Source of the DNA: an uncultured Candidatus Saccharibacteria bacterium
GTDB lineage: Bacteria > Patescibacteriota > Minisyncoccia > 2-02-FULL-40-12 > GWA2-44-9
Reading direction: 5' to 3'
Assembly (NCBI GenBank): GCA_964488565.1
Contig: CAZAUE010000002.1
Location: 40,048 to 104,047 of the forward strand
DNA length: 64,000 bases
Made by a program: the position numbers and the translations under genes. Of this stretch, positions 441-48,030 are shown one piece after another. Below the pieces are notes generated by a model. The model searched no databases. It saw nothing but the letters and a program-made list of their open reading frames with translations, and was not told the DNA's origin. Position 1 is the stretch's first letter; every line of letters starts with the position of its first letter.

Positions 441-586
441 AACCCCTCGTCAAGCATCCTCTCACTACGCTCGCTCACCCAGCGTGTTCGCTCCCTGCTA
501 TTGCTCATAAGCTCGTCTGTCTACTGACAGACACCATGCCCGCTTATTTCGCAAAAGCCGCTCGAGAATGCATTGGCTCGGGTTAA
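441..586. repeat. left copy of a roughly 165-bp inverted repeat pair (partner 5128..5306)
   Basis: 94 bp are identical to the reverse complement of 5213-5306 (caagcatcctctcactacgctcgctcacccagcgtgttcgctccctgctattgctcataagctcgtctgtctactgacagacaccatgcccgct). A further 42 bp match with 1 mismatch. The copy contains the internal palindrome gtctgtctactgacagac. Confidence 0.85.
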
Positions 587-967
587 TTTAGTTAGCGAGC
601 CAGCCCATCTCTGATTTTGCCTTTTCTGAGGAGGAGAAAATATATGAAAGCGAATTAAGGGATTTATCCAAAATAATAGGTGCTCGGAGGGCGGTGCTTT
701 AGCCCGCCCTAGAATCTCTGTCGAGCGCCGAGCCGTCAGCCTGCCTGCGGTAGTCAGGCAATAGGCTGACGAAGCGAGGAGGCAAGCGAGGGTTACTTAT
801 TATAGCTGCGAGTGAGGACAAATGTAAGCTTACTTACAGTTTGTCCGAACGAAGCAGATATACAACGTATTTTGGCTTAAATCCCAAATGAGCTAAGTAT
901 ATTTTAGAAGACGAGGACCGAGGTCAAAATTAGAGATGGACTAGGGAGAGGTAAGTTCCGCGCGGAA

Positions 968-1342
968 CTAAACATCAATATTTTTGAAGTGTTTAATTTT
1001 GGCAACCCCCTTAGATTCATCTAATCCGACCGAGATTATATCAATCTGCCACTCCTGTTCTGAATCATATTTCTTTTCCGCGAGATAAGTCCTCGCTGTT
1101 CTGACTACTTTAATCATTTTGGAACTATTGGCTCTTAGTTCTGGCTCGAAGCCGACAATTATTTTCCTGTTAGCTTTAACTTCGACAAAAACCAAAATCC
1201 CCTCTTTCAAAGCAATGATATCTATCTCGCCCCACGGCTTTCTATAATTTAATTCCAGCACAGTATATCCCCTTTTCTCCAAATAACGGGCGACTAAGTT
1301 TTCTGCCAAAAATCCCAGTTCGGATGTTTTACCTTGAGTCAT
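968..1342 (-). CDS. yraN: YraN/UPF0102 family endonuclease-like protein
   Basis: C-terminal region GYTVLELNYRKPWGEIDIIALKEGILVFVEVKANRK matches the UPF0102/YraN core. I place the start at the internal Met (MTQGKTSELGFLAENLVARYLEKRGY, ATG revcomp at 1340-1342), because the 30-aa N-terminal extension in the ORF track is atypical for this family. Confidence 0.65.
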   Translation of the reverse strand: MTQGKTSELGFLAENLVARYLEKRGYTVLELNYRKPWGEIDIIALKEGILVFVEVKANRKIIVGFEPELRANSSKMIKVVRTARTYLAEKKYDSEQEWQIDIISVGLDESKGVAKIKHFKNIDV

Positions 1343-5306: not shown

Positions 5307-5651
5307 GGGGTTGAAGAAATTTTAAGAATCAAAAAAGGCGCAGAACGCCCCTAATAAGTATGTAGTGTGGGCTCTGCGCCTTTGGGTCTCTTGCGAGACA
5401 TGAATTGCCGGCAATCCACGAATGTGTCTGACCACCAGCTAAAGATCTATACTAATTATACAAAGTCATTGGTGACACTGCAATAGCCAAACTGTGGATA
5501 AGGTGACACCATCAAACCATGGTGACATATTCATGGTGACACCATCAAATATTGGCTAATAGTGTCATTATTCCAAATAATCAGCCCCGCCAAGCGGGGC
5601 TGATTATTTACTAAATTTTATGGTGACAACAGGTTATGCACAAACCATCAC

Positions 5652-7079
5652 CTAAAATCCTTTGAGCTTATCTATTGTTCCAAAGATGGCTTCTCTCGAG
5701 TTTGTTACAACAAAATATGTTTTACCATTAGATGCCACAACAATTGAATAGTCTATCGTTCTGTCGGCAAATGGGAAATTCCAGAATCTAATGTTTGTGT
5801 TCCTGTATGAGTTGTTTGTAAAACCAGTTTGGTCTTTATTGCTTTTACCTAAAGAAAACAGGACCTTAAGATCGTTACTTAAACTATTTTCCCAACTGGT
5901 AATTACTTCGGAAGCACTGGCGGAATCTTTTAGTTCTGCGACAGCCACAATTCTATTAGAGGCAGTGGGTTCAATCAACAAATTACCCTTGGAGTCAAAA
6001 GATTCTTTTTGACCATAAACGAACATGGCGGAATCGTTTCCAATATTGCTTACTAATCCCACTGGAACGTTTAAGGCAAGTTTGGACAATAAATCAACAA
6101 AACCATAGGAAGTAGATGCGTTTTGAGCGTCGATAGTATTCAATATTTTAAATGATCCTGGAACCACAACCACCTTGCCAGTATCAGATACAAAAGACGC
6201 TAGTGCTCCAGTCTGTTTGATACTGACACTCTCTCTTACTACTCCGGAAAACATAGAGCTCAATGTTGGAGTAGGGGTTGGAACTGGTGTTTCTGTTGGA
6301 GTTGGCGTAGGAGTTTCAATTACAATCTCCGGGGCTGGTGCTCTTAAGATAAAGAACCAGTATGCAAATCCGGCCACCAATGCTATAGCGCCGATTCCCA
6401 AAAATAACACATTACGATTACCGCCCTTGGACCCAGCCTCAGGAACATAAATTTGTGACTTTTCCTCTGAAGTTGCTGGTGGTTTTGGGGCATCTTTCAT
6501 TTGAGCTAGTGGGCCCGTTTTCTGGCTTTCGCCCAAATTTACACTTGGAACTTTGAATTGCTGACCTGGTACTGCTGGCTTAGGAACGACGGGTTGAGGA
6601 GCAGGAGCTGCTTGTTCAACCTTTCTGGGAATATTAATTCCGGCTGGTTTTTGGCCTTGTTTTATATTAGAAATATCCTCACTCATTGTTCTGATTGAAG
6701 ATTGATATTCTTTTACGCCCGAGGTTGGTGGGGGAGTAACAGAAGATGGAGCTGGGGCTGGTTTTGATTGAGCAAATGACTGAGGGGGAACATTAAATTG
6801 TGGTCGTGGTGCTTCTGGTTTAGGTGTTGGAGTTGGAACAACTGGAGGTCTCACCGTGGTTGGTGGGACAAATGGTTTTGGTGCTGGCGAAGGAGGAGTT
6901 GCGGGTAAACCAGCCATTGGGGGAGATACTGGCGGTTTAGGTGTTGAGGGAATAGGTCTTGGTGCCTGAGTTGAAGGCGCAAGGGGCGGTGTCGGTGCTA
7001 CAGGATTTGTAGAACTTTTACTTAATTCCCTAACCAAGTCATTTATGTCCATAGTTTGGGGTTTCTGGTCATCTGCCAT
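5652..7079 (-). CDS. proline-rich membrane protein, hypothetical
   Basis: 475 aa. An N-terminal low-complexity P/T/A-rich region of about 200 aa, one TM helix (VLFLGIGAIALVAGFAYWFFIL), and a C-terminal globular domain. No recognisable family. Confidence 0.5.
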   Translation of the reverse strand: MADDQKPQTMDINDLVRELSKSSTNPVAPTPPLAPSTQAPRPIPSTPKPPVSPPMAGLPATPPSPAPKPFVPPTTVRPPVVPTPTPKPEAPRPQFNVPPQSFAQSKPAPAPSSVTPPPTSGVKEYQSSIRTMSEDISNIKQGQKPAGINIPRKVEQAAPAPQPVVPKPAVPGQQFKVPSVNLGESQKTGPLAQMKDAPKPPATSEEKSQIYVPEAGSKGGNRNVLFLGIGAIALVAGFAYWFFILRAPAPEIVIETPTPTPTETPVPTPTPTLSSMFSGVVRESVSIKQTGALASFVSDTGKVVVVPGSFKILNTIDAQNASTSYGFVDLLSKLALNVPVGLVSNIGNDSAMFVYGQKESFDSKGNLLIEPTASNRIVAVAELKDSASASEVITSWENSLSNDLKVLFSLGKSNKDQTGFTNNSYRNTNIRFWNFPFADRTIDYSIVVASNGKTYFVVTNSREAIFGTIDKLKGF

Positions 7080-11358: not shown

Positions 11359-12270
11359 ATGGACATTAAGACACTAAAAATCCAATATCTTGAACATCTA
11401 GAAATAGAGAAGAATCGTTCAGCTAAAACCCTTGAGAATTACGGGCGTTATTTGGATAGATTTTTACAATTCGCAAAAGTTTCCAATCCATCAGGAATTA
11501 CCGAAGATTTAATAAGACAGTACCGACTTCACTTAAACCGCCTGAAAGACAAAGAGGGGAACACTCTAAAAAAAGTCACCCAAAACTATCACATCATTGC
11601 CTTAAGAAATTTTTTGAAGTATTTAGCCAAAAGAGATATAAAATCCGTCCCAGCTGAAAAGGTTGAATTAGGAAAACAAGAAGATAGAGAAGTCACATTT
11701 CTTGAGGCTGATGAATTAGAAAGATTATTAAAATCACCCGAAGGAGATAATTTAGACACATTAAGAGACAGGGCTGTTCTTGGTACTTTGTTTAGTACTG
11801 GCATGCGTGTCTCTGAGCTTTGTTCATTGGATAGAAATAAAATAGACACAACTCGAGGAGAGCTAAGCATACGCGGGAAGGGGAGTAAGATTAGGGTGGT
11901 GTTTCTTTCTGATGACGCCAAAGAAGACATCAGTAAATACCTCTCTAAGCGTTCCGACATTGATGAGGCTCTTTTTATTCGAATTCCTAAATCAAAAACT
12001 TTTTCCAAAGACGACAACTTAAGGCTTACCCCACGAAGCATCCAAAGAATAGTTCAAAAATACGCCACCAAATCCGGCATCATGGGAAAGAGTGTCAGCC
12101 CTCACACCTTGCGTCACAGTTATGCCACCGACCTTCTACGCAATGGTGCCGACATCCGCTCCGTTCAGTCAATGCTCGGACACTCATCCGTCACTACAAC
12201 TCAAATCTATACTCACGTTACAGACAAGCAACTTAGAGAAGTGCACAAGAAATTTCATAACAAAAAATGA
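11359..12270 (+). CDS. xerC: tyrosine recombinase XerC/XerD family
   Basis: N-terminal SAM-like domain. Catalytic region with R...HTLRHSYAT...Y (TQIYTHV). 303 aa. Confidence 0.85.
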   Translation: MDIKTLKIQYLEHLEIEKNRSAKTLENYGRYLDRFLQFAKVSNPSGITEDLIRQYRLHLNRLKDKEGNTLKKVTQNYHIIALRNFLKYLAKRDIKSVPAEKVELGKQEDREVTFLEADELERLLKSPEGDNLDTLRDRAVLGTLFSTGMRVSELCSLDRNKIDTTRGELSIRGKGSKIRVVFLSDDAKEDISKYLSKRSDIDEALFIRIPKSKTFSKDDNLRLTPRSIQRIVQKYATKSGIMGKSVSPHTLRHSYATDLLRNGADIRSVQSMLGHSSVTTTQIYTHVTDKQLREVHKKFHNKK

Positions 12271-13612: not shown

Positions 13613-13702
13613 TGTAAAGGTCCTTCTTTGATACTAATTGCTTACAAAAATACCGCATTTAGCGGTATTGGTAAAGGAGGAGGAAGTCTGGGGGGGACTC
13701 GG

Positions 13703-13880
13703 TCACAGATAATTCTTCACTACTGGGGAGGGACTCGCCCACAAGTTGAATTGTCTTCCGACAATTCTCTTGCGGGCCCAGCTCGTGGTTTCGCTCGCCA
13801 ATTGCTCGCGAAACATCACTGCGCTTTTCGAGTCACTACGCGAGCCAAGCAGTTGGCTCGCTCCCTCGGGCTACTGAGTA
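13703..13880. repeat. GC-rich insert downstream of tRNA-Leu carrying a partial duplicate of the tRNA 3' end
   Basis: ctggggagggactcg at 13723-13737 duplicates the tRNA-Leu T-arm and acceptor sequence (13929-13943). It shares the cccagctcgtggttt...aacatcactgcgcttt module with 32470-32530. GC content is far above the flanks. Confidence 0.6.
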
Positions 13881-13920
13881 GTAAATTAAAATCGCTGTAA
13901 TTACAGCGATTTTAATTTAC
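13881..13920. repeat. perfect 40-bp palindrome (bidirectional hairpin terminator) at the tRNA-Leu 3' end
   Basis: gtaaattaaaatcgctgtaa|ttacagcgattttaatttac: perfect 20-bp arms. Separates tRNA-Leu from the GC-rich insert. Confidence 0.7.
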
Positions 13921-13925
13921 TAAAG

Positions 13926-14007
13926 TGCCCGGGGAGGGACTCGAACCCTCAATCCTTACGGAACACGATTTTAAGTCGTGCGTGTATACCAATTCCACCA
14001 CCCGGGC
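13926..14007 (-). tRNA. tRNA-Leu (anticodon TAA), long variable arm
   Basis: Minus-strand cloverleaf: acceptor gcccggg/cccgggc, anticodon loop cuUAAaa, T arm gaggg-ttcgagt-ccctc. No encoded CCA. Confidence 0.75.
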
Positions 14008-14121: not shown

Positions 14122-14787
14122 GTGTTGGGAACAAAACCATCCAAAAAAGTTATTACTTTTGCCATATCCGACAAGGAATATAAAAAATTTGGCTGTCCTG
14201 TTTGCGGACACGCTACAAGTAAGTGGTCATTCATGGGTGGTGGTGGATTAGTCGTAACATGTAAAAATACTAACTGCGAATCTATTTTTTATATCCTCAT
14301 TGGAAACTTCAAATCTTTTTACGTTAGATTTACCGATAAAACCGGCAAGTGTTTTACCCCAAAACTAGAAACGCATCCACGCAAAAACATACCTGCGTGG
14401 GGTGCAAGAGAGGATAAGAGATCACCAAAGACGGGCGAATTTTTTACGAACCCAAGCCAGTCTGAATATCGACACGGCCTTTGTTTTATTTGCAAAGATG
14501 TTTGCCGACTCCCGATTGACATAGAATGGCCAATGAAAAATCTTTTTTCTGTTAGCTTTAAAACACCCTGCGAAGAAGCGGCAAAAAGAATTCAAAAAAT
14601 CTTTGAAGCAAATGGACTTTGCATAAACACAGTAGGAAGTGGGGAAGAATATCCTCCTTCATTTTATCTTATAAACGTTTCCAGTTGCGTTGCTCACAAA
14701 CCCAATCTCTTAGAACTCCAAAAGGTTGCAAGAGAGAAGGGGGTCATCAACAAGAAAATCCTTTCAAAAATAAAGGCCCTCAAGTAG
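14122..14787 (+). CDS. hypothetical Cys-rich (zinc-finger-like) protein
   Basis: 221 aa with CPVCGH...CKNTNC and further Cys/His clusters. Lies between two tRNA genes. Terminator hairpin at 14788-14820. Confidence 0.4.
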   Translation: MLGTKPSKKVITFAISDKEYKKFGCPVCGHATSKWSFMGGGGLVVTCKNTNCESIFYILIGNFKSFYVRFTDKTGKCFTPKLETHPRKNIPAWGAREDKRSPKTGEFFTNPSQSEYRHGLCFICKDVCRLPIDIEWPMKNLFSVSFKTPCEEAAKRIQKIFEANGLCINTVGSGEEYPPSFYLINVSSCVAHKPNLLELQKVAREKGVINKKILSKIKALK

Positions 14788-16525: not shown

Positions 16526-16615
16526 GGAGACGTGTCAGAGTGGTCTAATGTGCCTCTTTGCTAAAGAGGTGATCGGTTTATCCCGGTCCGGAGGTTCGAA
16601 TCCTCCCGTCTCCGC
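16526..16615 (+). tRNA. tRNA-Ser (anticodon GCT), long variable arm
   Basis: Acceptor ggagacg/cgtctcc, anticodon loop uuGCUaa, long variable arm, T arm ggagg-ttcgaat-cctcc. Confidence 0.75.
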
Positions 16616-16761
16616 AGTGATAAATAAGGACAGCCGGTGGCTGTCCTTATTTAGTATCAATGCGTGATAGGGAGGATGAGAAAGGCGGAGCGCTGGCGCG
16701 AGCCGGGGTCGCGGAATTTTTCAGTAGAAAAATATCTGTGACCGAATCCTCCCGTCTCCGC
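16616..16761. repeat. about 145-bp GC-rich insert after tRNA-Ser ending in a 19-bp duplicate of the tRNA 3' end
   Basis: cgaatcctcccgtctccgc at 16597-16615 is repeated at 16743-16761. The insert begins with a terminator hairpin (aaataaggacagccggtggctgtccttattt) and contains the cgcgagccggggtcgcgg module. Confidence 0.65.
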
Positions 16762-32399: not shown

Positions 32400-32569
32400 A
32401 ACTCCCTTTAGGGAGTTTTATAATCTGGTGGTCACAAGTATTTTTCCTGACGGAAAAATCTCGCGACCCCAGCTCGTGGTTTTTGCCTTTCGCTATCGCT
32501 CAAACAAAAACATCACTGCGCTTTCCAAAAGCTAAAAATCTAAAGCAGTTTAGATTTTCTGACGCTTTG

Positions 32570-32804: not shown

Positions 32805-32876
32805 GCCCTCGTAGTTCAATGGATAGAACAAATCCGTCCTAAGGATAAAATGGGGGTCCGATTCCCTCCGAGGGCA
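32805..32876 (+). tRNA. tRNA-Arg (anticodon CCT)
   Basis: Acceptor gccctcg/cgagggc, D arm with GG, anticodon loop guCCUaa. The T loop reads tccgatt (C at position 55), which is unusual, so confidence is moderate. Confidence 0.55.
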
Positions 32877-33031
32877 CAAATTATGTTACGTTTTACGTAA
32901 AGCAAGTGAACTGCTTCACTTGCGTCAGAATTTGTGAGTTCGGAACTTATGACAGTCAATAGACTGTCATGTGAGAACGGGGTCGCGACCGAGCCAAGCG
33001 ACGGCGAGGCGAGAGTTGTGACCAAAAAGAT

Positions 33032-34468: not shown

Positions 34469-34540
34469 CGGGCCGTAGTGTAACGGTAACACGCACGATT
34501 CGGGTTCGTGAGACTCCGGGTTCAAATCCCGGCGGCCCGA
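34469..34540 (+). tRNA. tRNA-Pro (anticodon CGG)
   Basis: Acceptor cgggccg/cggcccg, anticodon stem cacga/tcgtg, loop uuCGGgu, T arm ccggg-ttcaaat-cccgg. Confidence 0.75.
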
Positions 34541-34710
34541 CTGGAGCAACGCGAAAGGAGGGGTGCAGCAAACAAACTACTTTGTTTGCGTCGAGAAGTG
34601 AAAAGCGGAGCGATATTTCTCGAACAGTTGGTGAGAGAAATCGCGAGCTGGGCCTGCGACCGAGCCGACGGAAGTCGGCGAGAGTTGTAGGCAAATCCCG
34701 GCGGCCCGAC
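34541..34710. repeat. about 170-bp GC-rich insert after tRNA-Pro ending in a perfect 19-bp duplicate of the tRNA 3' end
   Basis: caaatcccggcggcccgac at 34523-34541 is repeated at 34692-34710. The insert carries the gcgaccgagcc...cggcgagagttgt module shared with 32985-33020. Confidence 0.7.
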
Positions 34711-34720
34711 AAGCATCTGG

Positions 34721-35215
34721 TCAGTTAGGCTTTTTTCTTATTATTATTTTTATAGCTCTTTTCATGGTTTCAAAAATAACTGGAAGTTCAAGATAGTCTA
34801 TAGATATGGCTAGCCATGCAACGATATGGTTCCAGTGACCCACCAAACTTGCGTAACCCAAAACCTGGATAACCATTTCGTCGGTTATCCATAAAATATG
34901 CAACCACTGAACATTCAAGAAAATAAGGAAAAACAAATCTTTCCTGTTTGGTTTAATTTTGTATGATCTTAGATACACCAAAGAAGTTGCCACTATGGCC
35001 GGAATTTCAGTATAATCAACAACCGCTATGGTAGTATTGAAAAGGTGATTAATTAAAAACGGGGCAACGTCAAAAATTCTAGGAATTACCACGTTTGTAG
35101 TCAACCACAGAAGATGAATCAGTTGAATTGAAAATAATGCCCCAGCAAAGACAACATTGAAATCATCATGGTTGTCATACCACCTTAAAAATTTGCGCAC
35201 GATATTAGAAAACAT
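34721..35215 (-). CDS. hypothetical polytopic membrane protein
   Basis: 164 aa, 4-5 predicted TM helices. No recognisable family. Confidence 0.4.
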   Translation of the reverse strand: MFSNIVRKFLRWYDNHDDFNVVFAGALFSIQLIHLLWLTTNVVIPRIFDVAPFLINHLFNTTIAVVDYTEIPAIVATSLVYLRSYKIKPNRKDLFFLIFLNVQWLHILWITDEMVIQVLGYASLVGHWNHIVAWLAISIDYLELPVIFETMKRAIKIIIRKKPN

Positions 35216-35254: not shown

Positions 35255-35326
35255 GGGCCCGCCCTCACACCTACTTAGCACTGAGGGCCTCCGGCCCTAA
35301 AGTGTTATTGTGCTAAGTAGGTGTGA
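35255..35326. repeat. 65-bp palindromic insert flanked by a 7-bp direct repeat (gggcccg) at the 5' end of tRNA-Ala(CGC)
   Basis: Perfect 20-bp arms ccctcacacctacttagcac / gtgctaagtaggtgtgaggg (35262-35281 / 35310-35329) with a GC hairpin in the loop. gggcccg at 35255-35261 duplicates the tRNA acceptor 5' strand at 35327-35333. Confidence 0.65.
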
Positions 35327-35397
35327 GGGCCCGTAGTTAAGTGGCATAACGCGACATTCGCATTGTCGAGGCGGGAGTTCGATTCTCCCCGGGTCCA
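35327..35397 (+). tRNA. tRNA-Ala (anticodon CGC)
   Basis: Acceptor gggcccg/cgggucc with G3:U70, anticodon stem cgaca/tgtcg, loop uuCGCau, T arm gggag-ttcgatt-ctccc. Confidence 0.7.
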
Positions 35398-39189: not shown

Positions 39190-39204
39190 TGCTAAGATTA
39201 ATAG

Positions 39205-39765
39205 ATGAATCGTCGTCTCACTACAGTAATTGTTTTATTAGGAGTTGTGGTTCTGTTTGTTCCAAGGAGCACTCAAGCTGCCAACCCGTTCAGTATCTTT
39301 AAAATTATCGGTACAATAAATGATGCGGTCCGTTCAGCACAAATCCCTAGTGGCCCATCAGCATTGGCTCCTTTTGGAGGGAGAATAACAGAAAGCGGGA
39401 CGGCATGTAAGCTGAATTACTGGACAGGATATCCCATTCCCTTTTTTCCTTTTTATGTTACTCACCCAGGACCACCCATTCCTCTTTTTGGAACAAAAAT
39501 TAGTGTAAGTCGTCCAGGAATTCCGGTATCGGATGTTTTCACATTCCCAGGTATCACCAAAATTTACCCCAATCACAATGAGGACAAGGTGGGGAAATGG
39601 ACACTTGGTCAGGTTTATAGGACTAATTTTATGGGACCACTCATAGACAAAATAAACTCTACCCTAAGCTCAATGCCTCCTATAGTGGTTGGGCCAGTAA
39701 CCTTTTATAATTTTAGTTTAAGTTGCCCAGACGGTAAGGCAATCTTCAAGATTGGCACAAGTTAA
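39205..39765 (+). CDS. secreted hypothetical protein, first gene of the T4SS-like operon
   Basis: Signal peptide MNRRLTTVIVLLGVVVLFVPRSTQA. Pro/Gly-rich mature part. No recognisable family. Confidence 0.45.
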   Translation: MNRRLTTVIVLLGVVVLFVPRSTQAANPFSIFKIIGTINDAVRSAQIPSGPSALAPFGGRITESGTACKLNYWTGYPIPFFPFYVTHPGPPIPLFGTKISVSRPGIPVSDVFTFPGITKIYPNHNEDKVGKWTLGQVYRTNFMGPLIDKINSTLSSMPPIVVGPVTFYNFSLSCPDGKAIFKIGTS

Positions 39766-39814
39766 CATATCAACACTCTTATTGTTGGTTTAGTGCTATA
39801 ATTAGGGCACAGAA

Positions 39815-40732
39815 ATGGCAAATAAATTCAAACTTTTTGTCGGTTTTTTGGCATTGATAGCCCTATTTTCGGTTTACAGTTTCTTCAATTCTTTTAGCTC
39901 TCCTTCTCCGATTACAAAAACCGCAAACATGCTCCAAAATTCTACATCCTTTAAGGTTGATGCCGATACAGATAAAGATGGTTTAACCAATCGAGACGAA
40001 TCCTATTGGAACACAGATTTTCAAAACCCCGATACTGATGGTGATGGATTTTTAGATGGAGAAGAAGTTTCATCCGGCCATGATCCTTTAATCCCTAGCC
40101 CAAACGACCTTTTAAATACTGGCAACACGACATACAAACTATCAAATCTCACACTCTCTGGTCTTTATGAAGGTTCTCTTGCTCCGAATAATCCAAATTA
40201 CAACAAATCCATATATGACATGGCACTTGCAGTTATGGATGATGCCTCCAGCGAGTTAAGCTCTAAAATTTCTCCTGAAAAAATAAAGACCTCAAAATCC
40301 AACAAAGAAAACCAGGAAAAATACATTAGGGAGATATCTCCTCTAATCGAGCAGATGTTCTCAGCTTATGTATTTGAGTTAAATAAAATTGCAAGCGACT
40401 TCAATAATTCAGAACTATCTAACTCAGACGATCAAATAATTGAATTTTTCAAGAATCAATCTGAACAATATGATGAGTATCTCAACACAGCACTAAACAT
40501 CGTCCCGCCTAAAAATTGGGAGTCTGATCATGTTGGGCTTTTAAAACTTCTTGAAGACCTAAAAAATGTTCATGCGGCAATCTTTAAAAATAATACTGAC
40601 CCGATCACAGCACTTGTTGCAATGAATCGACTCAGTGGTCTTTTGGAAATAATCCCCAAAATAACACTATCTTACGCTGAAAAAGTTGAGGTTGAAAAAA
40701 TAAAAACCGAATCAACTATTTTCCACAAATGA
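39815..40732 (+). CDS. secreted/membrane-anchored protein with thrombospondin type-3-like Ca-binding repeats
   Basis: N-terminal hydrophobic segment. DADTDKDGLTNRDE...DTDGDGFLDGEE repeats (DxDxDG). Remainder helical. Stop overlaps the next start (ATGA). Confidence 0.5.
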   Translation: MANKFKLFVGFLALIALFSVYSFFNSFSSPSPITKTANMLQNSTSFKVDADTDKDGLTNRDESYWNTDFQNPDTDGDGFLDGEEVSSGHDPLIPSPNDLLNTGNTTYKLSNLTLSGLYEGSLAPNNPNYNKSIYDMALAVMDDASSELSSKISPEKIKTSKSNKENQEKYIREISPLIEQMFSAYVFELNKIASDFNNSELSNSDDQIIEFFKNQSEQYDEYLNTALNIVPPKNWESDHVGLLKLLEDLKNVHAAIFKNNTDPITALVAMNRLSGLLEIIPKITLSYAEKVEVEKIKTESTIFHK

Positions 40733-42282
40733 GAGTAATCTTTTTAAAAACAATTACCTGCTTACTCTTTGTTATTCTTATTTATCCCAACAACACCGCA
40801 TTTGCAGCACCAACGGTTGGTTCAATTTCTGTGGGTGCCGCTAGATTTGGTGCTTGCTCCATAGGAGGAAAAATATCTCCCTACTTAAGCCAAGTATTGG
40901 ATGACGGCTACAAAAATCTCAATAAAGGAATAAATAAAATTATCGCCCGAATTCCTGGATTATCTAGAATACCAGGTATCGGAGGATTGGCTGGTGGGGT
41001 TCTCGGTGGAGATTCTGTTCCGGTCAATGATGCTGGTTTAAATACTATTCAAAGCAGGCTTTTGGCAAAAGAAACTTCTGGTGACATTGCAACCAGATGC
41101 GCTTCTATGGAGGTTTTGAATTTTATGAACACAAGCATAAATGATCTAGCCAGAAATAGTGGTAGAAATGGCGGAGCGTCCTGGATTAGAAATTGGAGAA
41201 ACTTTCAAACCGACTCCCAATACAGAGGAGAGGGAATATTTAGAGCGATGCTTTCAAATACAAAACTTTGCGATTACTTTAGCGGTGACCTTAAGGGGTT
41301 ATTTGGAGCAACAACACCAACGGCTGCACCCAGAAATACCAGAACAGGCAATCTTGATCCCTACGCCCTTCGTGCTAATTGCACTATGCCCTCAGGTTTT
41401 AATTTAACCAATTATCAGAACGATTTTTCTGGAAATGGTGGTTGGAATGCTTTTTCGAGAATGCTTGAACCACAAAATAATTACTATGGAGCTTTGTTCG
41501 GGGCTTTAGATGAGGTGTCCAAGCAAAGATCGTTAGAGGAGTCGGCTGATTTAAACCAAGTTATAGCAAACAGGGGTTTCACTGGAAGGAGTGGTGGAAA
41601 TGCAGCTGAAAGTTGCTCTTCAAGAGACCCAAGTGGTAAATGTCTTAGCTACAACGACATAAAGACACCCGGAAGTGTAATCGCAGATAGTATTGCCGCA
41701 TCAATAAAAACAGAACTTGATGTGGCTGTTTCGGCAGATGAAATAAGTGAACTAATAAGCACCGCCACCGATGTTTTAATAAACAGATTAAAAGACCTTG
41801 GTAATCCTAATGAAGGTGAGTACTTATCATATACACCTCCCGAAGTGTCTGAAGAAGCACCACCCGGAGGTGGTGGTCGTTGTGCTGGAACAAGCACGGG
41901 TCCAATCTATGAGGGAGCTCTTGATGGTGCAATTAGTGCTGTTATTACTGCCAATCCGGGAGGAATAGCCGATGAACTTAACACCGCCAATAATGGTTTT
42001 GTTTTTCTAAGCTATTTAGGCCCAGAACTAGAGCGAAGAGGATTTAACGCTACCGCTACGGTCTTGAATGGAAATGACAATCCCAACCAAGGAGATTTAA
42101 TTGCGCTTCAGAGACCAAACGAGCCGGAATGGGAACGATATGATGTAATTGTTAATTCCGGAGCAGGAGATGCTCCACTAAGGACAGTGGTCGGTACTGA
42201 CTATGTAGGCACCATTCCTTTGAGTTGTGTTACGGGTGGTAGTGGTGGTGGTGGAACACCAACTCCTGAACCGGCATTTTAA
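40729..42282 (+). CDS. large secreted Cys-containing hypothetical protein
   Basis: Signal peptide ending NNTAFA|AP. 517 aa. Gly-rich segments and a C-terminal GGSGGGGTPTPEPAF tail. Translationally coupled to the flanking genes. Confidence 0.45.
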   Translation: MRVIFLKTITCLLFVILIYPNNTAFAAPTVGSISVGAARFGACSIGGKISPYLSQVLDDGYKNLNKGINKIIARIPGLSRIPGIGGLAGGVLGGDSVPVNDAGLNTIQSRLLAKETSGDIATRCASMEVLNFMNTSINDLARNSGRNGGASWIRNWRNFQTDSQYRGEGIFRAMLSNTKLCDYFSGDLKGLFGATTPTAAPRNTRTGNLDPYALRANCTMPSGFNLTNYQNDFSGNGGWNAFSRMLEPQNNYYGALFGALDEVSKQRSLEESADLNQVIANRGFTGRSGGNAAESCSSRDPSGKCLSYNDIKTPGSVIADSIAASIKTELDVAVSADEISELISTATDVLINRLKDLGNPNEGEYLSYTPPEVSEEAPPGGGGRCAGTSTGPIYEGALDGAISAVITANPGGIADELNTANNGFVFLSYLGPELERRGFNATATVLNGNDNPNQGDLIALQRPNEPEWERYDVIVNSGAGDAPLRTVVGTDYVGTIPLSCVTGGSGGGGTPTPEPAF

Positions 42283-44741
42283 TGATAAAAATAAAACTAT
42301 CAAAACTTAGTTTATTATTTGTACTAATCGCGGTGAGCGCAATGGTTTTGCTTCCAACACATCCAGTTAATGCCGCGTGTATTGCTGGATTTTTCCCCAT
42401 AACAGACTGCATTCTTGTGGGAACATCCTATCTTGTTTATTTAGTATTCACGATAGTTGGTCAAGGCATCGCTGCTCTGGTTGGGGTTCTTCAGTGGGTT
42501 ATAAATCTTCCTGTTTACCCAGCTGACGGCCAGAGAATCGCTGTTATTGATGAAAGTTGGAAAATAATGAGAGACTTTGCCAACATGTTTTTCATCTTAG
42601 CTCTTATTCTGATGGCGTTTGCAACTATTTTTGACGTTCTTCCTGGAGCGGCTAAATATAATGCTCGGGCTTTGTTCGGTAAATTTATTTTTACAGCACT
42701 TCTTATAAATTTCAGTCTAGTGCTCGGGGTTATGGTTATTCAAGGAACTCAAGTTCTAAATAATACATTTCTGACATCAATAGGGGACATGTCTAGTCAA
42801 TTGGGGCAAGCATTAAATCCGTCACTTTTACTTCCAAATATTAGTTCCGCAACAATTTCCCAAGCAGTAGATCAGGGCTTGTTTGGATCTCTTATTTCAC
42901 TAGTATTTGCTGTTGTTTTGGCTTTTACTTTTTTATTCAGTCTTTTGACAGCAGTTATCTTTTCCTTCATTAGAATTCCGATTCTCTGGGCCCTGTTAGT
43001 GATTTCACCGATTGCCTGGATTTTAAATATTTTTCCGGCAGGAGAAGGTATGTTTAAAAAATGGTGGAGTACATTCATAGGTTGGAATATGTTTCTTCCA
43101 ATCTTTCTGTTTTTCCTTTATTTCGGTCTTTATTTCCTTAAGAGCCAAGGCACCACAATGCAGGCAATAGCAGGAAGCTCTGGTACTGGTACTATTCTGG
43201 GTGACACTGTCACAAGTTTCACTTTTCAAATGTTGTTCATGTATGTCATGGCAGGAATATTCTTAATTGGTGGAACAATCGTCGCCATGAAAGCATCTAT
43301 GTTGTCTGGAACTGGAGTGCTGGGAATTGCGAAGTGGTCACGAGGAAAAGCGGCGCGCTGGACAGGATTAACCGGAGCAAATCAAGCTTGGCAGGAAAAG
43401 AGAAAAGAAATTGAAGGAGGAGAGGGGAGATTGGGCAGAATTTTTGGTGGTCCACCGATGGGACTTGAGTCATCCAGAAGACTGCTCGGTGTCAGAGGAG
43501 GAGATTACAAAACCCAAAAGGAATTCGTTGATAGGGCTGGAAAAGAATATGACCTTATTCAAAATCAATATGACACTGGCAAAATTAGTGTTAATGACAT
43601 AGTTGCCCGAGCTAGCCAAGGAAGTGCTACTAATCCAGAGACATACGCCTACAGAAAAATGGCTGCCAAAATGGGTAAACTTACTGATCCTATTTTTGAA
43701 AAAACAGTTAACGACTTGTCGGAAAATCCTTATGCTCTGCAAGACTTTATTAAAACAGCCAAAGAGGGCAAGTTTTCCGATGTTGGTGCTGGTACAATAC
43801 TTGATTTTGCCTCTCGACAAGGTGGTTTTGCGAATACCGGACCCAATGCACTTCCAGGTAGACGAGAAACATATAGACACATTCAGTCTAATGCCAAAAT
43901 AATGTCTAATCCGAGATTTGGTCAAAGTGAATTCAATCAAGGTGTAGACATTTTTGGCGGACATACAACCGCTGAAGGTCAAAGCTTCTTAGAAGATGTT
44001 GGCAAAACCAGACCTGACTTGGTCATAGATTACAATATGGGAAATGAGGATGTAATGAGAAAGATAAACGATAGAAGGAGAGAAGAGGGTAAAAATCCAG
44101 TTACTCGTTCAGAAATGTTTGATGGTTATATTAAAGACGCAAAAGATATCGCCAACCTTCCCAAGACTGTGTGGACAAATCAAGACTTTCAAAAAGCTCT
44201 CGAAAGAAAACTGTCTTTCGGTAGCCCCAAGGCTCAAAGAAATTTCCGAAACCGTATCATTGATAACCTTAGGACTGCCATGAACGGCGAGGACAAGAAA
44301 AATATTTTAAACACATTGTCAGGAGCTAGAGATGATGGACAAACACCAGACAATGACAACTTTGGAGAAGACGACTTGGATTTAGATAACGATGAAACTC
44401 CACCAACAGGGGGTGGTCCTGGTCCAACAACACCGCCAACCCCAACAACTCCTCGAACTAACAATGTAAACCCTAACAACGTCGTTAATTTAAGAAACCC
44501 CACAACTCAAAACACTAGGGGGTCAGGATGGCTATCTGATGTACAACAAAACATTGAGAGGCTCGGCAAACAAGAATTTACACTTGAAGATGCGTATAGT
44601 TTTGAGGGCGAACTAAGCACACTTCATCCTGAAAATAAATTTGTAAAAGATAAAATCCGACAACAACTACAGGTTCTACGTGATAAAGGATACCTTGAAT
44701 TTACTGGCCCAGGAAAATACCGAATAAAAAATAGCCCATGA
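42282..44741 (+). CDS. VirB6/TrbL-like polytopic membrane protein with large C-terminal hydrophilic extension
   Basis: N-terminal signal or TM segment plus about 7 further TM helices over about 330 aa (the VirB6/TrbL architecture). Then a roughly 450-aa soluble domain containing a PT-rich linker (GGGPGPTTPPTPTTP). Position immediately upstream of VirB3-like and VirB4 genes. Confidence 0.5.
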   Translation: MIKIKLSKLSLLFVLIAVSAMVLLPTHPVNAACIAGFFPITDCILVGTSYLVYLVFTIVGQGIAALVGVLQWVINLPVYPADGQRIAVIDESWKIMRDFANMFFILALILMAFATIFDVLPGAAKYNARALFGKFIFTALLINFSLVLGVMVIQGTQVLNNTFLTSIGDMSSQLGQALNPSLLLPNISSATISQAVDQGLFGSLISLVFAVVLAFTFLFSLLTAVIFSFIRIPILWALLVISPIAWILNIFPAGEGMFKKWWSTFIGWNMFLPIFLFFLYFGLYFLKSQGTTMQAIAGSSGTGTILGDTVTSFTFQMLFMYVMAGIFLIGGTIVAMKASMLSGTGVLGIAKWSRGKAARWTGLTGANQAWQEKRKEIEGGEGRLGRIFGGPPMGLESSRRLLGVRGGDYKTQKEFVDRAGKEYDLIQNQYDTGKISVNDIVARASQGSATNPETYAYRKMAAKMGKLTDPIFEKTVNDLSENPYALQDFIKTAKEGKFSDVGAGTILDFASRQGGFANTGPNALPGRRETYRHIQSNAKIMSNPRFGQSEFNQGVDIFGGHTTAEGQSFLEDVGKTRPDLVIDYNMGNEDVMRKINDRRREEGKNPVTRSEMFDGYIKDAKDIANLPKTVWTNQDFQKALERKLSFGSPKAQRNFRNRIIDNLRTAMNGEDKKNILNTLSGARDDGQTPDNDNFGEDDLDLDNDETPPTGGGPGPTTPPTPTTPRTNNVNPNNVVNLRNPTTQNTRGSGWLSDVQQNIERLGKQEFTLEDAYSFEGELSTLHPENKFVKDKIRQQLQVLRDKGYLEFTGPGKYRIKNSP

Positions 44742-45046
44742 GATTTCAATTACCACAATTTATTGAGACAGAGACCAAAATAATTGGTCCGTTTACTCTT
44801 CAACAATTCCTGTGGATTGCCGGCGGGGTAGCTTTCATTTTTTTGTTCTATACTTTAATCAAGGGGGTTTTATTCTTCTTTCTTGCAATTCCGGTGGCTG
44901 TAATTTTCGGAGCCCTGGCCTTTGTTAAAATAGATGGCGTTCCGCTTATTGTTTATGCATCTTATAGTATTTCTTATTTCACGAATCCCAAAAAATATGT
45001 TTTCAAAAAAGACGATGAGGGTATAAAAGATTACACTAAGCAATAG
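44738..45046 (+). CDS. VirB3-like small two-TM membrane protein
   Basis: 102 aa with two hydrophobic helices. Encoded directly upstream of the VirB4 ATPase, as VirB3/PrgI-type proteins are. Confidence 0.4.
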   Translation: MRFQLPQFIETETKIIGPFTLQQFLWIAGGVAFIFLFYTLIKGVLFFFLAIPVAVIFGALAFVKIDGVPLIVYASYSISYFTNPKKYVFKKDDEGIKDYTKQ

Positions 45047-45054
45047 ATACAAGC

Positions 45055-45711
45055 ATGGCAACCCAATCCACCAAACAATTAGTCGAAATTTCTAACATCA
45101 TAGACAATGTTGTTTTACTAAAAAACGGATCATTAAGATCTGTGATTGAGGTTACAGCAATAAACTTTGAGCTCCGCTCAGAAGGGGAGCAGATAGCCAT
45201 TCTTCAGAATTTTCAACGATTTGTAAATTCAATAGATTTTCCACTTCAGATAGTAATTAACTCCAGAAAGTTAAACATAGACGAGTATGTTAAGTTTGTT
45301 GAAAAATCTTCAGGCGAACTTACCAATGAATTGTTAAAAATACAGGCCACGGAGTATTCCAAATTCATTAAGGAGCTTTCCGACCTTTCTAATATCATGT
45401 CCAAGAAATTCTATATTGTTATACCTTTCTATGTTTTTGAGGCGCCTTCAAAGGCGGGGATAACCCAAAGCTTAAAAAGTATATTCAAACCCTCTACTGT
45501 TGCAAAAGAGCTTACTCCAGAACAATTGGAAACCTACAAAAGCCAACTTCTTCAAAGAACTGAACTGATTTTTGATGGCTTGGTTGGAATGGGACTAAAA
45601 ACAAGAACATTAGAAAAGGATGACTTAATGAATCTTTTCTATGGACTATATAATCCATCCACTAAAAGCGATTTTAAAAGCACTGAAGATAACACGCTAG
45701 ACTTAAAATAA
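45055..45711 (+). CDS. VirB4/TraC-type ATPase, N-terminal domain (separate ORF)
   Basis: IIDNVVLLKNGSLRSVIEVTAINFELRSEGEQIAILQNFQRFVNSIDFPLQIVI resembles the N-terminal domain of Gram-positive-type VirB4 (ConE/PrgJ/TcpF-like). Ends in TAATG overlapping the next start in a different frame. Confidence 0.6.
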   Translation: MATQSTKQLVEISNIIDNVVLLKNGSLRSVIEVTAINFELRSEGEQIAILQNFQRFVNSIDFPLQIVINSRKLNIDEYVKFVEKSSGELTNELLKIQATEYSKFIKELSDLSNIMSKKFYIVIPFYVFEAPSKAGITQSLKSIFKPSTVAKELTPEQLETYKSQLLQRTELIFDGLVGMGLKTRTLEKDDLMNLFYGLYNPSTKSDFKSTEDNTLDLK

Positions 45712-47456
45712 TGGATATCGGACAAAATAAAAAATTAGACGAATTGTTTGCCCCTTCGGCTTTCAGCGTTTCACCTAACTATTTTCAGATAGGGGATAGA
45801 TATGCTCGCACGATCTTTCTTGCAACTTATCCGCGCTATCTCCAAACCAGTTGGTTTTCACCGGTAATAAATCTTGACCGAGTATTTGATGTTTCGATTT
45901 TTATATTACCAAAAAATACGGCCACGGTTCTCAAGCAGTTACGAGACCAGCTGGCCAGACTCCAATCTCAAGTGATGGAGGAATCCTCAAAGGGAAAAGT
46001 TCGTGATCCAATGCTTGAGACGGCTATCCAAGACATAGAGACACTAAGAGACAAACTCCAGCAAGGAACTGATAAGTTCTTTGAACTTGGGGTCTATATT
46101 ACGATTTATGAAAACAGCGTAAAAGAATTAGATGAAACTGAAAATAAAATTAAAGGTTTTTTGGAATATCAACTAGTCTATCCGAAACCGGCTATTTTCA
46201 GAATGAATGAAGGTTTTAATTCAACCCTTCCTATTAATGACGACCAGCTTAATGTTCACACCTCACTAAACACAGAGCCACTTTCTTCTTTGTTTCCGTT
46301 CGTTTCTTTTGACCTGACATCCGATTCGGGAATCCTTTATGGCATAAACACACACAATAATTCACTAGTCTTGTTCGACAGATTTGGTTTAGAAAACGCC
46401 AATGCTGTAGTTTTTGGAAAATCTGGAGGTGGTAAAAGCTATACAATCAAGTTGGAAATATTAAGAAGTCTTCTTTTTGGAACTCAGGTTTTAATTATTG
46501 ATCCAGAAAACGAATACAAATATCTCTCAGACACAATTGGAGGATCGTCGATAAAAATTTCGATTAATTCAGACCAACACATCAATCCATTTGATTTACC
46601 AACACCAAAATCCGACGAGTCGCCGGCTGACGTTTTCAAATCCCACATTTTAGAGCTTACTGGTCTTTTAAGACTCATGCTCGGAGAACTAACCCCAGAA
46701 GAGTCAGCCATCTTAGATGAAGCTCTTATCCAGACATATGCCATCAAGGACATAACTCCAGAATCAGATTTCTCTCAGTCATCTCCACCATTACTTTCTG
46801 ACCTTCAAAGTATTCTTGAGGGATTAACTGGGGCAGAATCAATGGCCATAAGACTACGAAAGTATACACAGGGAACTTATTCAGGGTTCTTGAATAAGCC
46901 AACCAACGTATCTCTTGATAATCAACTCATTACGTTTAGTATACGAGAAATGGAAGAGGAGTTAAGACCTATCGCCATGTACCTAATCTTGAATTTTATG
47001 TGGGTAACAATAAGAAGAACCCTCAAGAAACGCATTCTTGTTGTTGATGAGGCTTGGGTACTTATGAAATATGAAGTTGGCGCAAACTTTTTATCCAATA
47101 TCGCCAAGAGAGCTCGAAAATATTATGCTGGGCTGACAACAATCACTCAAGACATACCCGATTTCCTCTCATCGCCACAAGGAAAAACTATTCTGAGTAA
47201 TTCTTCAATACAAGTACTAATGAAGCAGTCGCCATCATCAATTGAGGTGGTAAAAGAAACCTTCAACCTAACTGATGCTGAAAAATATTACCTATTAGAG
47301 GCACGTGTAGGTTTTGGATTATTCTTCCTTGGGCAAAATCATATCGGCATTAGGGTTGTTGCCTCTTATGCTGAAGATCAAATAATTACTTCTGATCCAC
47401 GCCAAATACTTGAGATAGAAAAGGCAAAAGAGGAGTGGGCTAAATTAAGAGGGTAA
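45711..47456 (+). CDS. VirB4/TraC/CagE-type T4SS ATPase, C-terminal ATPase domain
   Basis: Walker A VVFGKSGGGKS, Walker B RILVVDEAW, a TQ sensor motif (LTTITQD), and VirB4-type linker regions. 581 aa. Together with the 218-aa ORF it makes about 799 aa, the size of a full VirB4. Confidence 0.75.
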   Translation: MDIGQNKKLDELFAPSAFSVSPNYFQIGDRYARTIFLATYPRYLQTSWFSPVINLDRVFDVSIFILPKNTATVLKQLRDQLARLQSQVMEESSKGKVRDPMLETAIQDIETLRDKLQQGTDKFFELGVYITIYENSVKELDETENKIKGFLEYQLVYPKPAIFRMNEGFNSTLPINDDQLNVHTSLNTEPLSSLFPFVSFDLTSDSGILYGINTHNNSLVLFDRFGLENANAVVFGKSGGGKSYTIKLEILRSLLFGTQVLIIDPENEYKYLSDTIGGSSIKISINSDQHINPFDLPTPKSDESPADVFKSHILELTGLLRLMLGELTPEESAILDEALIQTYAIKDITPESDFSQSSPPLLSDLQSILEGLTGAESMAIRLRKYTQGTYSGFLNKPTNVSLDNQLITFSIREMEEELRPIAMYLILNFMWVTIRRTLKKRILVVDEAWVLMKYEVGANFLSNIAKRARKYYAGLTTITQDIPDFLSSPQGKTILSNSSIQVLMKQSPSSIEVVKETFNLTDAEKYYLLEARVGFGLFFLGQNHIGIRVVASYAEDQIITSDPRQILEIEKAKEEWAKLRG

Positions 47457-47465
47457 TCAATAACC

Positions 47466-48029: not shown

Positions 48030-48030
48030 T

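Follow-up and report, generated by a model that had tools for sequence, protein, structure and literature searches.

We analysed a stretch of 64,000 nucleotides (the window) from the genome of an uncultured Candidatus Saccharibacteria bacterium (assembly GCA_964488565.1, contig CAZAUE010000002.1, positions 40,048 to 104,047 of the forward strand), and we focused on a GC-rich block that follows the tRNA-Leu(taa) gene on the minus strand. This block is one copy of a family of protein-less, structured elements of about 140-240 bp, which is widespread in Patescibacteria (Candidate Phyla Radiation, CPR). The parts of the tRNA-Leu locus are listed below in minus strand order. X denotes the repeated tRNA 3' end, X' its inverted copy, and P0 to P3 are helices.

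13925..14007, minus strand: intact tRNA-Leu(taa) gene (ARAGORN; Rfam tRNA, 61 bits)
13943-13925, minus strand: near copy of the repeat (X-prox), the last 19 nt of tRNA-Leu from C56 to C74
13879..13922: perfect palindrome of 44 bp with the arms 13879-13900 and 13901-13922 (22+22 nt, 100% complementary, spacer 0; repeat search)
13862..13871, minus strand: 5' half of X', gcccgaggga (GCCCGAGGGA), complementary to the 3' strand of the tRNA acceptor (tccctc...gggc); seen in the sequence, called as inverted repeat and paired in the single-stranded DNA (ssDNA) fold
13840..13861, minus strand: P0 hairpin gcgagccaACTGCttggctcgc, a side branch that splits X' (sequence and fold)
13829..13834, minus strand: 3' half of X', gactcg, the complement of cgagtc, with which the repeat begins (6 nt, C56-C61, the first six bases past GGTT); based on sequence, inverted repeat, fold and closing-helix counts
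13738..13829, minus strand: conserved GC-rich three-way-junction core consisting of GAAAAGCGCAGUG, the P2 hairpin, CCACGAGCUGGG and the long P3 hairpin with a GGAA loop, with the end cuuguggg
13725..13737, minus strand: first far copy of the tRNA 3' end, cgagtccctcccc, covering C56-C68 and stopping after 13 nt (exact 13-mer match)
13702..13724, minus strand: remnant of an older Ser-type module, agtagtgaagaattatctgtgac, 23 nt comprising the P3 loop and the 3' strand (aligns with cagtagaaaaatatctgtgac of the Ser module)
13688..13701, minus strand: second copy of the tRNA 3' end, outermost and decayed, cgagtcccccccag (2 mismatches over 13689-13701)
13646..13669, minus strand: hairpin with the arms ataccgc and tgcggtat, the loop taaa and the T-run ttttt (read from the sequence; not called by a simple terminator scan)

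The tRNA-Leu gene ends with ...GGTT CGAGTCCCTCCCCGGGCA C, that is with ...gggcaC, and an encoded CCA is absent. A preliminary description of this locus had reported a perfect palindrome of 40 bp downstream of the gene. The palindrome exists but its measured length is 44 bp. In the ssDNA fold, it constitutes the tip of a long hairpin that begins in the T-loop of the tRNA, and it looks like a terminator for tRNA-Leu. The same description had stated that 14 of the 15 nt at 13929-13943 recur at 13723-13737, which is correct. It had overlooked, however, that there is a third copy at 13689-13701. The 13-mer CGAGTCCCTCCCC occurs exactly within the tRNA (13931-13943) and at 13725-13737, and with 2 mismatches at the third position. 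When up to 2 mismatches were allowed, these 3 matches compared with 0.42 expected ones, and a number of 3 was reached in 0 of 100 shuffles. Comparison of the outermost copy with the flank of the tRNA-Leu gene in the closest orthologous locus (L087, gggcaCCAGAAg) suggests that this copy probably keeps the original CCAG(A) of the native gene end. Similarly, the hairpin at 13646-13669 is probably the native terminator of tRNA-Leu, which would now lie past the insert. The core was matched by our covariance model R1 (see below) at 13728-13839 with 86.3 bits and its RNA fold had a z-score of -6.2. The P0 hairpin was found again in many other members of the family.

A like pattern had previously been noticed at tRNA-Ser and tRNA-Pro, and both genes indeed carry perfect 19-nt repeats covering C56-C74. 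This list was incomplete since the same core is found behind tRNA-Arg(cct) and tRNA-Ala(ggc), too; there, the repeated part of the tRNA end amounts to only 0-4 nt. Five of the seven tRNA genes in the window carry an element (Leu, Ser, Pro, Arg(cct), Ala(ggc)), while Cys and Ala(cgc) are free. The four additional elements are arranged as follows:

16526-16615, plus strand: tRNA-Ser(gct)
16616..16742, plus strand: Ser element with a hairpin (16622-16652), X' (16662-16677) and a short core lacking P2 (16680-16742); R1, 58 bits; ssDNA fold
16597-16615 and 16743-16761, plus strand: perfect 19-nt Ser repeats, C56-C74
16743..16763, plus strand: far copy of the tRNA-Ser 3' end, C56-C74 plus CA, with the encoded CCA kept, abutting the stop codon of a convergent ComF-like gene
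34469-34541, plus strand: tRNA-Pro(cgg)
34542..34691, plus strand: Pro element with P0 (34565-34590), core (34600-34691) and a largely decayed X'; R1, 94.8 bits
34692..34710, plus strand: far copy of the tRNA-Pro 3' end, perfect 19 nt C56-C74; its partner is 34523-34541
32805-32877, plus strand: tRNA-Arg(cct)
32878..33022, plus strand: Arg element of type 2, followed by CA and by the start of the cca gene at 33032; R1, 59.4 bits
32569-32640, minus strand: tRNA-Ala(ggc)
32428..32568, minus strand: Ala(ggc) element of type 2, ending with cttgtgac and CAC, followed by CA and the native terminator; R1, 56.3 bits

When the window was searched with R1 and the filters switched off, the scores of these elements (Pro 94.8, Leu 86.3, Arg 59.4, Ser 58 and Ala(ggc) 56.3 bits) were well separated from the next-best match of 11.5 bits.

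The Leu, Pro and Ser inserts can be aligned with each other and show compensatory changes; a fourth copy, that after tRNA-Ala(ggc), was found by simple motif searches. A pattern scan of 185,579 species genomes yielded 75 loci, about 45 of which belong to Patescibacteria (Saccharibacteria, Paceibacterota, Yanofsky-, Moran-, Kaiser-, Taylor- and Zambryskiibacteria). The pattern matches outside the CPR (Proteobacteria, Acidobacteria and others) were rejected as chance matches in GC-rich coding sequence, since they did not exceed 26 bits with the covariance model (778 kb control). Two metagenome-assembled genomes labelled as non-Patescibacteria carry modules with high scores, namely L011 (labelled Elusimicrobiaceae, 91 bits) and L038 (labelled Gammaproteobacteria, 92.6 bits). 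The proteins encoded next to the L038 module match those of Saccharibacteria and Zambryskiibacteria loci and therefore mis-binning is likely; the same is likely for L011.

The covariance model R1 was built from an alignment of 22 type-1 copies, the consensus of which involves 25 base pairs. Sixteen of them showed compensatory changes and a G.U pair was invariant. With this model, we recovered 68 copies, 5 in the window and 63 in 45 CPR loci. In the alignment of all 68 copies, 95% of the cells pair and 23 of the 25 pairs have changed on both sides. These values were approached by none of 500 shuffles and by no slid register. The core folds as a three-way junction formed by P1/P2 and P3 with the fixed G.U pair, which is retained in 61 of 65 sequences, and the RNA folds of the elements reached z-scores of -4 to -6. 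We found no match of the element to any family of Rfam 15, neither for the whole window at gathering thresholds nor for the Leu and Pro loci at E-values up to 10, and only tRNAs were reported. Searches of the literature did not retrieve an earlier description of the element. Beyond what the preliminary description had stated, the insert is a member of a large, structure-conserved family and not a decayed remnant of an island.

For 56 of the 68 copies, a tRNA gene was identified upstream on the same strand, usually at a distance of 27-100 nt. In a few cases the tRNA was farther off (about 180 nt to 1.5 kb), and some of these copies are located behind other copies in tandem arrays. The copies lacking an identified upstream tRNA are near contig ends or follow tRNA fragments. 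Among the 102 tRNA genes of these loci, 52 are occupied, and they represent 13 amino-acid families. An element is built, in this order, of a terminator-like hairpin, X' (often split by P0), the three-way-junction core and the direct copy of the tRNA end. Two types can be distinguished by the latter. In type 1 (Leu, Ser and Pro in the window), the far end repeats the tRNA from C56 of the T-loop to the discriminator or to C74 (19 nt for C56-C74), and the match always begins at the same tRNA position, C56. Type 2 (Ala and Arg in the window and, at other loci, many Ala and Glu genes) repeats no more than the last 0-4 nt (CCAC). Both types carry X', the inverted copy of the repeated segment, just upstream of a conserved GAAAAGCG motif. 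X' comprises about 19 nt split by P0 in type 1, and GTGG plus element-internal bases in type 2. The helix formed by X' and X covaries with the identity of the tRNA.

Inspection of the borders indicated that in all five elements of the window the element-specific sequence begins directly after C74, and that the far copy, or the empty orthologous site, goes on with C75 and A76 or with the native flank. At the Leu site, the near copy reads gggcaC/tttag (the slash marks the junction) and the relatives read gggcaC/CAgaag. The Ser site has ccgC/agtg in the near copy and ccgC/CAactt in the far copy. For Ala(ggc), the near copy is tccaC/aaagcg and the far copy is gtgacCAC/CAgatt, followed by the native terminator. 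At the Arg site, ggcaC/aaatt compares with ggcaC/CAgaac in the related locus L161. Since the far Ser and Ala copies have kept CCA and the native flank, and since the Ser copy abuts the stop codon of the ComF-like gene, they are clearly the original gene ends, which were pushed downstream, and the near copy was brought by the element. For the Leu, Pro and Arg sites, we infer the same roles of the far and near copies. Insertion strips the encoded CCA from the working tRNA gene. The inverted copy of the tRNA end and the join exactly after C74 are features of the insert that were not part of the preliminary description.

To compare these sites with related genomes, we used two genes as handles. 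With IF-2, we obtained eight close relatives (83-89% identity, 49 kb), which contain tRNA-Cys (8 of 8), tRNA-Leu(taa) (7) and tRNA-Ser (3). None of these eight relatives carries a module anywhere in the 49 kb. Their tRNA-Leu genes encode the CCA end at 6 of 7 loci and are followed by ordinary trailers; CCA is also encoded in 2 of the 3 tRNA-Ser genes. In the closest orthologous locus (L087), tRNA-Leu is almost identical and ends with gggcaCCAgaag (gggcaCCA). With the CCA-adding enzyme, the homologues of which are named Candidatus Yanofskybacteria, we obtained six relatives (77-89% identity). All six keep tRNA-Ala(ggc), tRNA-Arg(cct), cca, tRNA-Pro(cgg) and tRNA-Ala(cgc), five of them in the same order, and their Arg, Pro and Ala(ggc) sites do not carry a module. 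The distance between the end of tRNA-Arg and cca is about 10 nt in four of these relatives but 155 nt in the window, and that between tRNA-Pro and tRNA-Ala(cgc) is 13-52 nt in four of them but 786 nt in the window. Thus, the insert was absent wherever one of the five occupied sites was recovered, and these empty sites exclude the scenario of an ancestral, conserved tRNA trailer, which the preliminary description had named as its own counter-explanation.

The six relatives obtained with the CCA-adding enzyme hold only two modules and these follow other tRNAs (L164 after tRNA-Ala(cgc), L165 after tRNA-Lys(ttt)). The L164 element is nearly identical to the Ala(ggc) element of the window, although the CCA-adding enzymes of the two hosts differ by 17%. 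The Ala(ggc) site of L164 and the Ala(cgc) site of the window are both empty. This amounts to a presence/absence polymorphism that reflects recent movement between two tRNA-Ala genes or between genomes. More generally, the nearest relative of a module is usually found in another genome and at another tRNA; for instance, the Ser module of the window is 84% identical to the Arg(tct) module of L048. Occasionally, two modules of one genome are 95% identical, as for Ala(ggc) and Ala(tgc) in L016. Nested remnants (Leu in the window and an analogous one in L033) and tandem copies (L018, L031) suggest that elements have inserted more than once at the same site. Taken together, the presence/absence pattern among close relatives, the 13 kinds of tRNA and the nested and tandem copies indicate that the elements are mobile or were so recently. 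We therefore consider it very probable that they represent a family of mobile insertion elements at tRNA 3' ends.

In L164, a large serine recombinase of 533 aa with Resolvase, Recombinase and Zn_ribbon_recom domains (1168-2769) lies directly next to tRNA-Ala(ggc) or overlaps it. The same tRNA neighbourhood thus appears to serve a separate integrative element as well.

Public short-read contigs often hold only the cca gene (1.5-2.7 kb) or stop short of the M23 peptidase gene, about 170 nt upstream of it, as is the case for L077, L080 and many of the contigs behind P0001-P0120. Evidently, metagenome assemblies break at these repeated elements. An exact-protein look-up of the neighbouring M23 peptidase returned the same strain only, with an identical spacer of 510 bp.

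No open reading frame (ORF) was found inside any element. An all-against-all BLASTP comparison of the ORFs of 46 loci did not reveal a recurrent protein family beside the modules. The window codes for housekeeping functions and contains type IV pilus genes as well as a TraG-like region; its Pfam scans detected no transposase, HUH protein, reverse transcriptase or RNA-guided nuclease. The possibility that the elements come from phages was rejected, as 2.9 million viral contigs that were pattern-scanned gave one short, chance-like match. In L050, the end of tRNA-Lys(ttt) is the starting point of a 276-aa ORF (461-1291, minus strand) that resembles LAGLIDADG_3 homing endonucleases and carries an N-terminal helix-turn-helix domain. 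The stop codon of this ORF directly adjoins T54 in a 3' fragment of another tRNA, and this fragment heads a module. Such an arrangement may link homing endonucleases targeting the T-loop with the elements.

The reading that the locus carries the footprint of site-specific insertion into a tRNA gene, with a regenerated gene, a displaced 3' fragment and no integrase, had already been put forward in the preliminary description and is supported by the empty sites of the relatives. Several sublocation classes of tRNA-gene integration were reportedly distinguished by Williams in 2002. Tyrosine integrases insert genomic islands and prophages into tRNA and tmRNA genes, and tRNA-gene islands are defined in Islander by a regenerated target and a displaced fragment (PMC4383910). 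Our elements resemble such islands in that the tRNA gene is split and restored from element sequence, that the displaced 3' fragment forms the far direct repeat, and that the block of identity extends from the T-loop (type 1) or from the extreme 3' end (type 2) to the end of the gene. They differ from islands in their size (140-240 bp versus kilobases), in the lack of an integrase or any other ORF, in the covarying three-way-junction core with an internal inverted att (attachment site) copy, and in the use of one core family for at least 13 tRNA types. Moreover, type 2 shares 0-4 nt with its target, which is too few for the classical overlap of 6-8 bp, while type 1 shares 19 nt. This similarity raises the question of whether the inserts are decayed attL/attR scars of a larger, integrase-bearing island or prophage, or simply an ancestral tRNA trailer. 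A regenerated tRNA with a displaced 3' fragment is indeed the signature of tRNA-gene islands (PMC4383910), but 68 copies with a common covarying structure are unlike random leftovers, no copy adjoins an integrase, viral contigs gave essentially no matches, near-identical copies occur at different tRNAs in related genomes, and the empty sites in 14 relatives exclude an ancestral trailer. The covarying family, the lack of an integrase and the empty sites refute this explanation, and we regard it as hardly credible.

A second parallel is provided by CTXphi. In this phage, a forked hairpin arises from two dif-like sequences in inverted orientation that are separated by about 90 nt. XerC exchanges a single pair of strands, replication completes the process, and one functional site is left after integration along with two that are non-functional (PMC3089051). 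As in CTXphi, in other integrative mobile elements exploiting Xer (IMEX) and in integron attC sites, the element contains two inverted att-like sequences with a loop between them, and it is predicted to fold into a forked hairpin. The integrated state, with one functional copy and inverted and direct non-functional copies, is also shared and was seen in the window and at other loci. Systems of this kind have a single-stranded replicative or transfer form, are recombined by Xer or IntI, do not need a recombinase of their own and require little target identity, since one strand pair is exchanged. On the other hand, our element has the end of a tRNA gene as its target instead of dif or attI, it has no known ssDNA phage or replicon, and it is 20-50 times smaller than CTXphi.

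By analogy with these systems, the insertion may proceed as follows. The free form of the element would fold as a single strand in which X pairs with X', and the resulting forked hairpin would mimic the duplex end of a tRNA gene. An enzyme acting in trans, perhaps a tyrosine recombinase or an HUH-type nuclease, would cut one strand and join it behind C74, and replication would then complete the insertion. The outcome would be the order X (near), loop, X' (inverted), body, X (far), as with attP(+) of CTXphi and XerCD. The target would be recognised through base pairing with X', and this would account for the use of one core family at many tRNAs; cutting and joining of one strand after C74 would explain why type 2 needs only 0-4 nt of target identity. 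After insertion, the element would most simply be co-transcribed with the tRNA because there is no promoter between them; many copies have a terminator-like hairpin ahead of the core. The core itself might serve as a handle for the enzyme, as a replication or priming structure, or as an active RNA. This scheme is consistent with the folding of the tRNA-Leu region from T54 to X' as ssDNA, which forms one forked hairpin with the palindrome at its tip and P0 as side branch (-44.8 kcal/mol, z-score -12.9), and with the equivalent Ser hairpin (z-score -10.4).

We are moderately confident in the combined statement that a mobile family at tRNA 3' ends inserts by way of a single-stranded, folded hairpin. 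The folded-hairpin, single-strand mechanism as such is a tentative proposal, which we consider possible rather than likely, and several findings weigh against it. A free circular or single-stranded form of the element was not observed and no enzyme was identified in the window or in the 45 loci. The sole tyrosine recombinase of the window (11359-12270) is Xer-like and syntenic and is 88-89% identical in the module-free relatives; it was therefore rejected as element-specific enzyme, and it may or may not act as a host factor. The rule of joining after C74 holds for the window elements, L164 and L005, but in L075 the repeat extends through CCA. The X':X helix is less well kept than the helices of the core (74% versus 91-98% of the cells paired), and X' of the Pro element is largely decayed. 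Furthermore, the G.U pairs and the cGGAAg tetraloops suit RNA at least as well as folded DNA, so that the core may act as RNA, and no data presented here explain how X' and X are re-matched when an element moves to a new tRNA.

The properties of the core raise the alternative that the element is primarily an RNA, namely a tRNA-linked, tRNA-like small RNA that is co-transcribed with the tRNA. In such a molecule, the X'/X helix would correspond to a closing helix resembling acceptor and T-stem, P0 would stand for the body of the tRNA and the core for the T-loop, and RNase P and RNase Z would release it. It might serve the cell (processing, decoy, sponge) or act as ribozyme or guide RNA of a mobile element. 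Functional tRNA trailers are known, an example being the 3'ETS-leuZ (external transcribed spacer) sponge of E. coli. Plant mitochondrial t-elements are tRNA-like processing elements (PMC1920247). Our element would resemble these RNAs in being structured, linked to a tRNA transcript and potentially excisable by tRNA-processing enzymes, but they are fixed host features, while the element is a polymorphic insertion that duplicates the tRNA end. An RNA role is suggested by the sense strand with its invariant G.U pair, more wobble pairs, cGNRAg loops and strong covariation, by RNA folds with z-scores of -4 to -6, and by the closing helix, which covaries with tRNA identity. The position close behind the identified upstream tRNA, on the same strand and with no promoter-like site between them, might be added, but strand and position are set by the insertion site anyway and thus do not argue for an RNA function. 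In addition, a strong terminator-like hairpin separates the tRNA from the core in many copies, the distribution is patchy with none in close relatives, nested, tandem and decayed copies look selfish, and the pairing of X' with the far X is often lost (Leu and Pro in the window, L045). As primary explanation, we rate this RNA reading as rather unlikely, somewhat below the hairpin mechanism, with which it is compatible and not mutually exclusive. Two RNA-based possibilities could be rejected. A group I or other intron in the T-loop does not agree with the complete, unspliced near tRNA, with the boundaries and with the small core, and the sole paper on CPR tRNA introns that we found deals with position 35/36 (PMC13011429). 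Self-cleaving ribozymes (hammerhead, twister, pistol, hatchet) gave no Rfam match, and the lengths of the junction strands do not fit a hammerhead.

The small size, the lack of a protein and the structured ends are also reminiscent of MITEs (miniature transposable elements with inverted repeats) and palindrome-associated transposable elements (PATEs). MITEs and PATEs are non-autonomous derivatives of insertion sequences (IS), which include palindrome-associated elements derived from IS200/IS605. Like these, our elements are multi-copy, would be mobilised in trans and are patchy among strains. However, their inverted repeats copy the target and not a parent IS, no parent IS was found, they occupy a single defined site in tRNA genes, and the repeat varies from 0 to 19 nt instead of being a target-site duplication of fixed length. 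In line with this, X' and X vary between the copies, in each case matching the tRNA at the site. An element of the IS200/IS605 type would be moved as ssDNA by a Y1 HUH transposase; the end hairpins would be handles for the transposase, the tRNA end (...N73 C74) the target, and X' an enlarged internal guide pairing with the cleavage site. The elements do have a hairpin near the left end and a P3 hairpin flush with the right end, they insert directly 3' of a defined nucleotide and they contain an internal sequence complementary to the target. But IS200/IS605 elements do not duplicate their targets of 4-5 nt, while type 1 repeats 19 nt; neither TnpA nor TnpB was present in the window or in the 45 loci, and there was no similarity to the IS605-orfB or omega-RNA-type families of Rfam. 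We consider this origin improbable. More improbable still is the reading of the core as a guide-RNA scaffold (omega-RNA- or crRNA-like), in which the 19-nt tRNA end would guide a TnpB- or Cas12k-like protein to tRNA genes for homing, and GGTT of the T-loop would be the transposon- or protospacer-adjacent motif (TAM/PAM). Guide RNAs of these kinds combine a conserved scaffold with a variable 3' guide of 16-20 nt and have a cognate nuclease gene. In type 1, the scaffold is directly followed by a variable 19-nt segment identical to the tRNA downstream of GGTT, as one would expect. Nevertheless, the neighbouring intact tRNA would be a perfect self-target, the guide of type 2 would have only 0-4 nt, the guide pairs in cis with X', no nuclease gene is linked, and the far Ser and Ala copies are displaced gene ends with CCA and native flank and not element-encoded spacers. 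For these reasons, this reading was rejected and we give it next to no credence.

A more far-reaching reading is a programmable insertion guided by base pairing. In this case, a tRNA 3' end would be selected through about 19 nt of complementarity to X', which might act in the form of RNA or of a folded strand of DNA. The core would either be a ribozyme or provide a host enzyme with its only handle, one strand transfer would take place exactly between C74 and C75, and a change of X' would suffice to retarget the element. We regard this reading as speculative and unlikely; the chance that the mechanism is new in kind is similarly small, though real. If such programmable insertion were true, the family would constitute a mobile element of a new class and might provide a targeting module of very small size, and if the internal complementary segment sets the choice of target, the family would be a natural example of reprogrammable site-specific insertion. 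The elements matter in other respects as well. The genomes of Patescibacteria are among the smallest bacterial ones, and in the element-carrying genomes about half of the examined tRNA genes are occupied. Loss of CCA should make occupied tRNA genes dependent on the CCA-adding enzyme. As the family shows, less than 250 bp are enough to target and repair a tRNA gene, and the element needs no protein of its own for this. For annotators, a covariance model of the core would make it possible to mask or label hundreds to thousands of copies of an element that breaks metagenome assemblies at tRNA loci.

Several additional features of the window were observed. Directly upstream of tRNA-Ala(cgc), at 35255-35333, the first 7 nt of this tRNA (GGGCCCG) are duplicated (35255-35261 and 35327-33). 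The duplicates flank an insert of about 65 nt that is built of a 20-nt inverted repeat (35262-35281 / 35310-35329), and this arrangement suggests that a small hairpin element of another kind has inserted at the 5' end of a tRNA gene. Two ORFs located between tRNA genes gave no Pfam match, namely 14122-14787 (plus strand; 221 aa, CxxC motifs) and 34721-35215 (minus strand; 164 aa). The tRNA genes around them are adjacent in several close relatives (for Cys and Leu, 15-28 nt apart in five of the relatives obtained with IF-2), and the two ORFs appear to be lineage-specific insertions beside the structured elements. The region 39200-49100, just upstream of yidC, dnaA and dnaN (49.6-54.3 kb), consists of ORFs that mostly lack a Pfam match. 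It also encodes a protein of 819 aa bearing a DpnI_C domain (42282-44741) and a P-loop ATPase that is TraG/VirB4-like (45711-47456), and the region as a whole may represent an element of conjugative or secretion type that has integrated near the origin. Finally, at least 5 copies of the box (G)TGTCACC(A) with 10-30 nt spacing were seen at 5440-5570 (minus strand), downstream of the ORF 5652-7079 and its terminator hairpin, and they look like a putative array of protein-binding sites.

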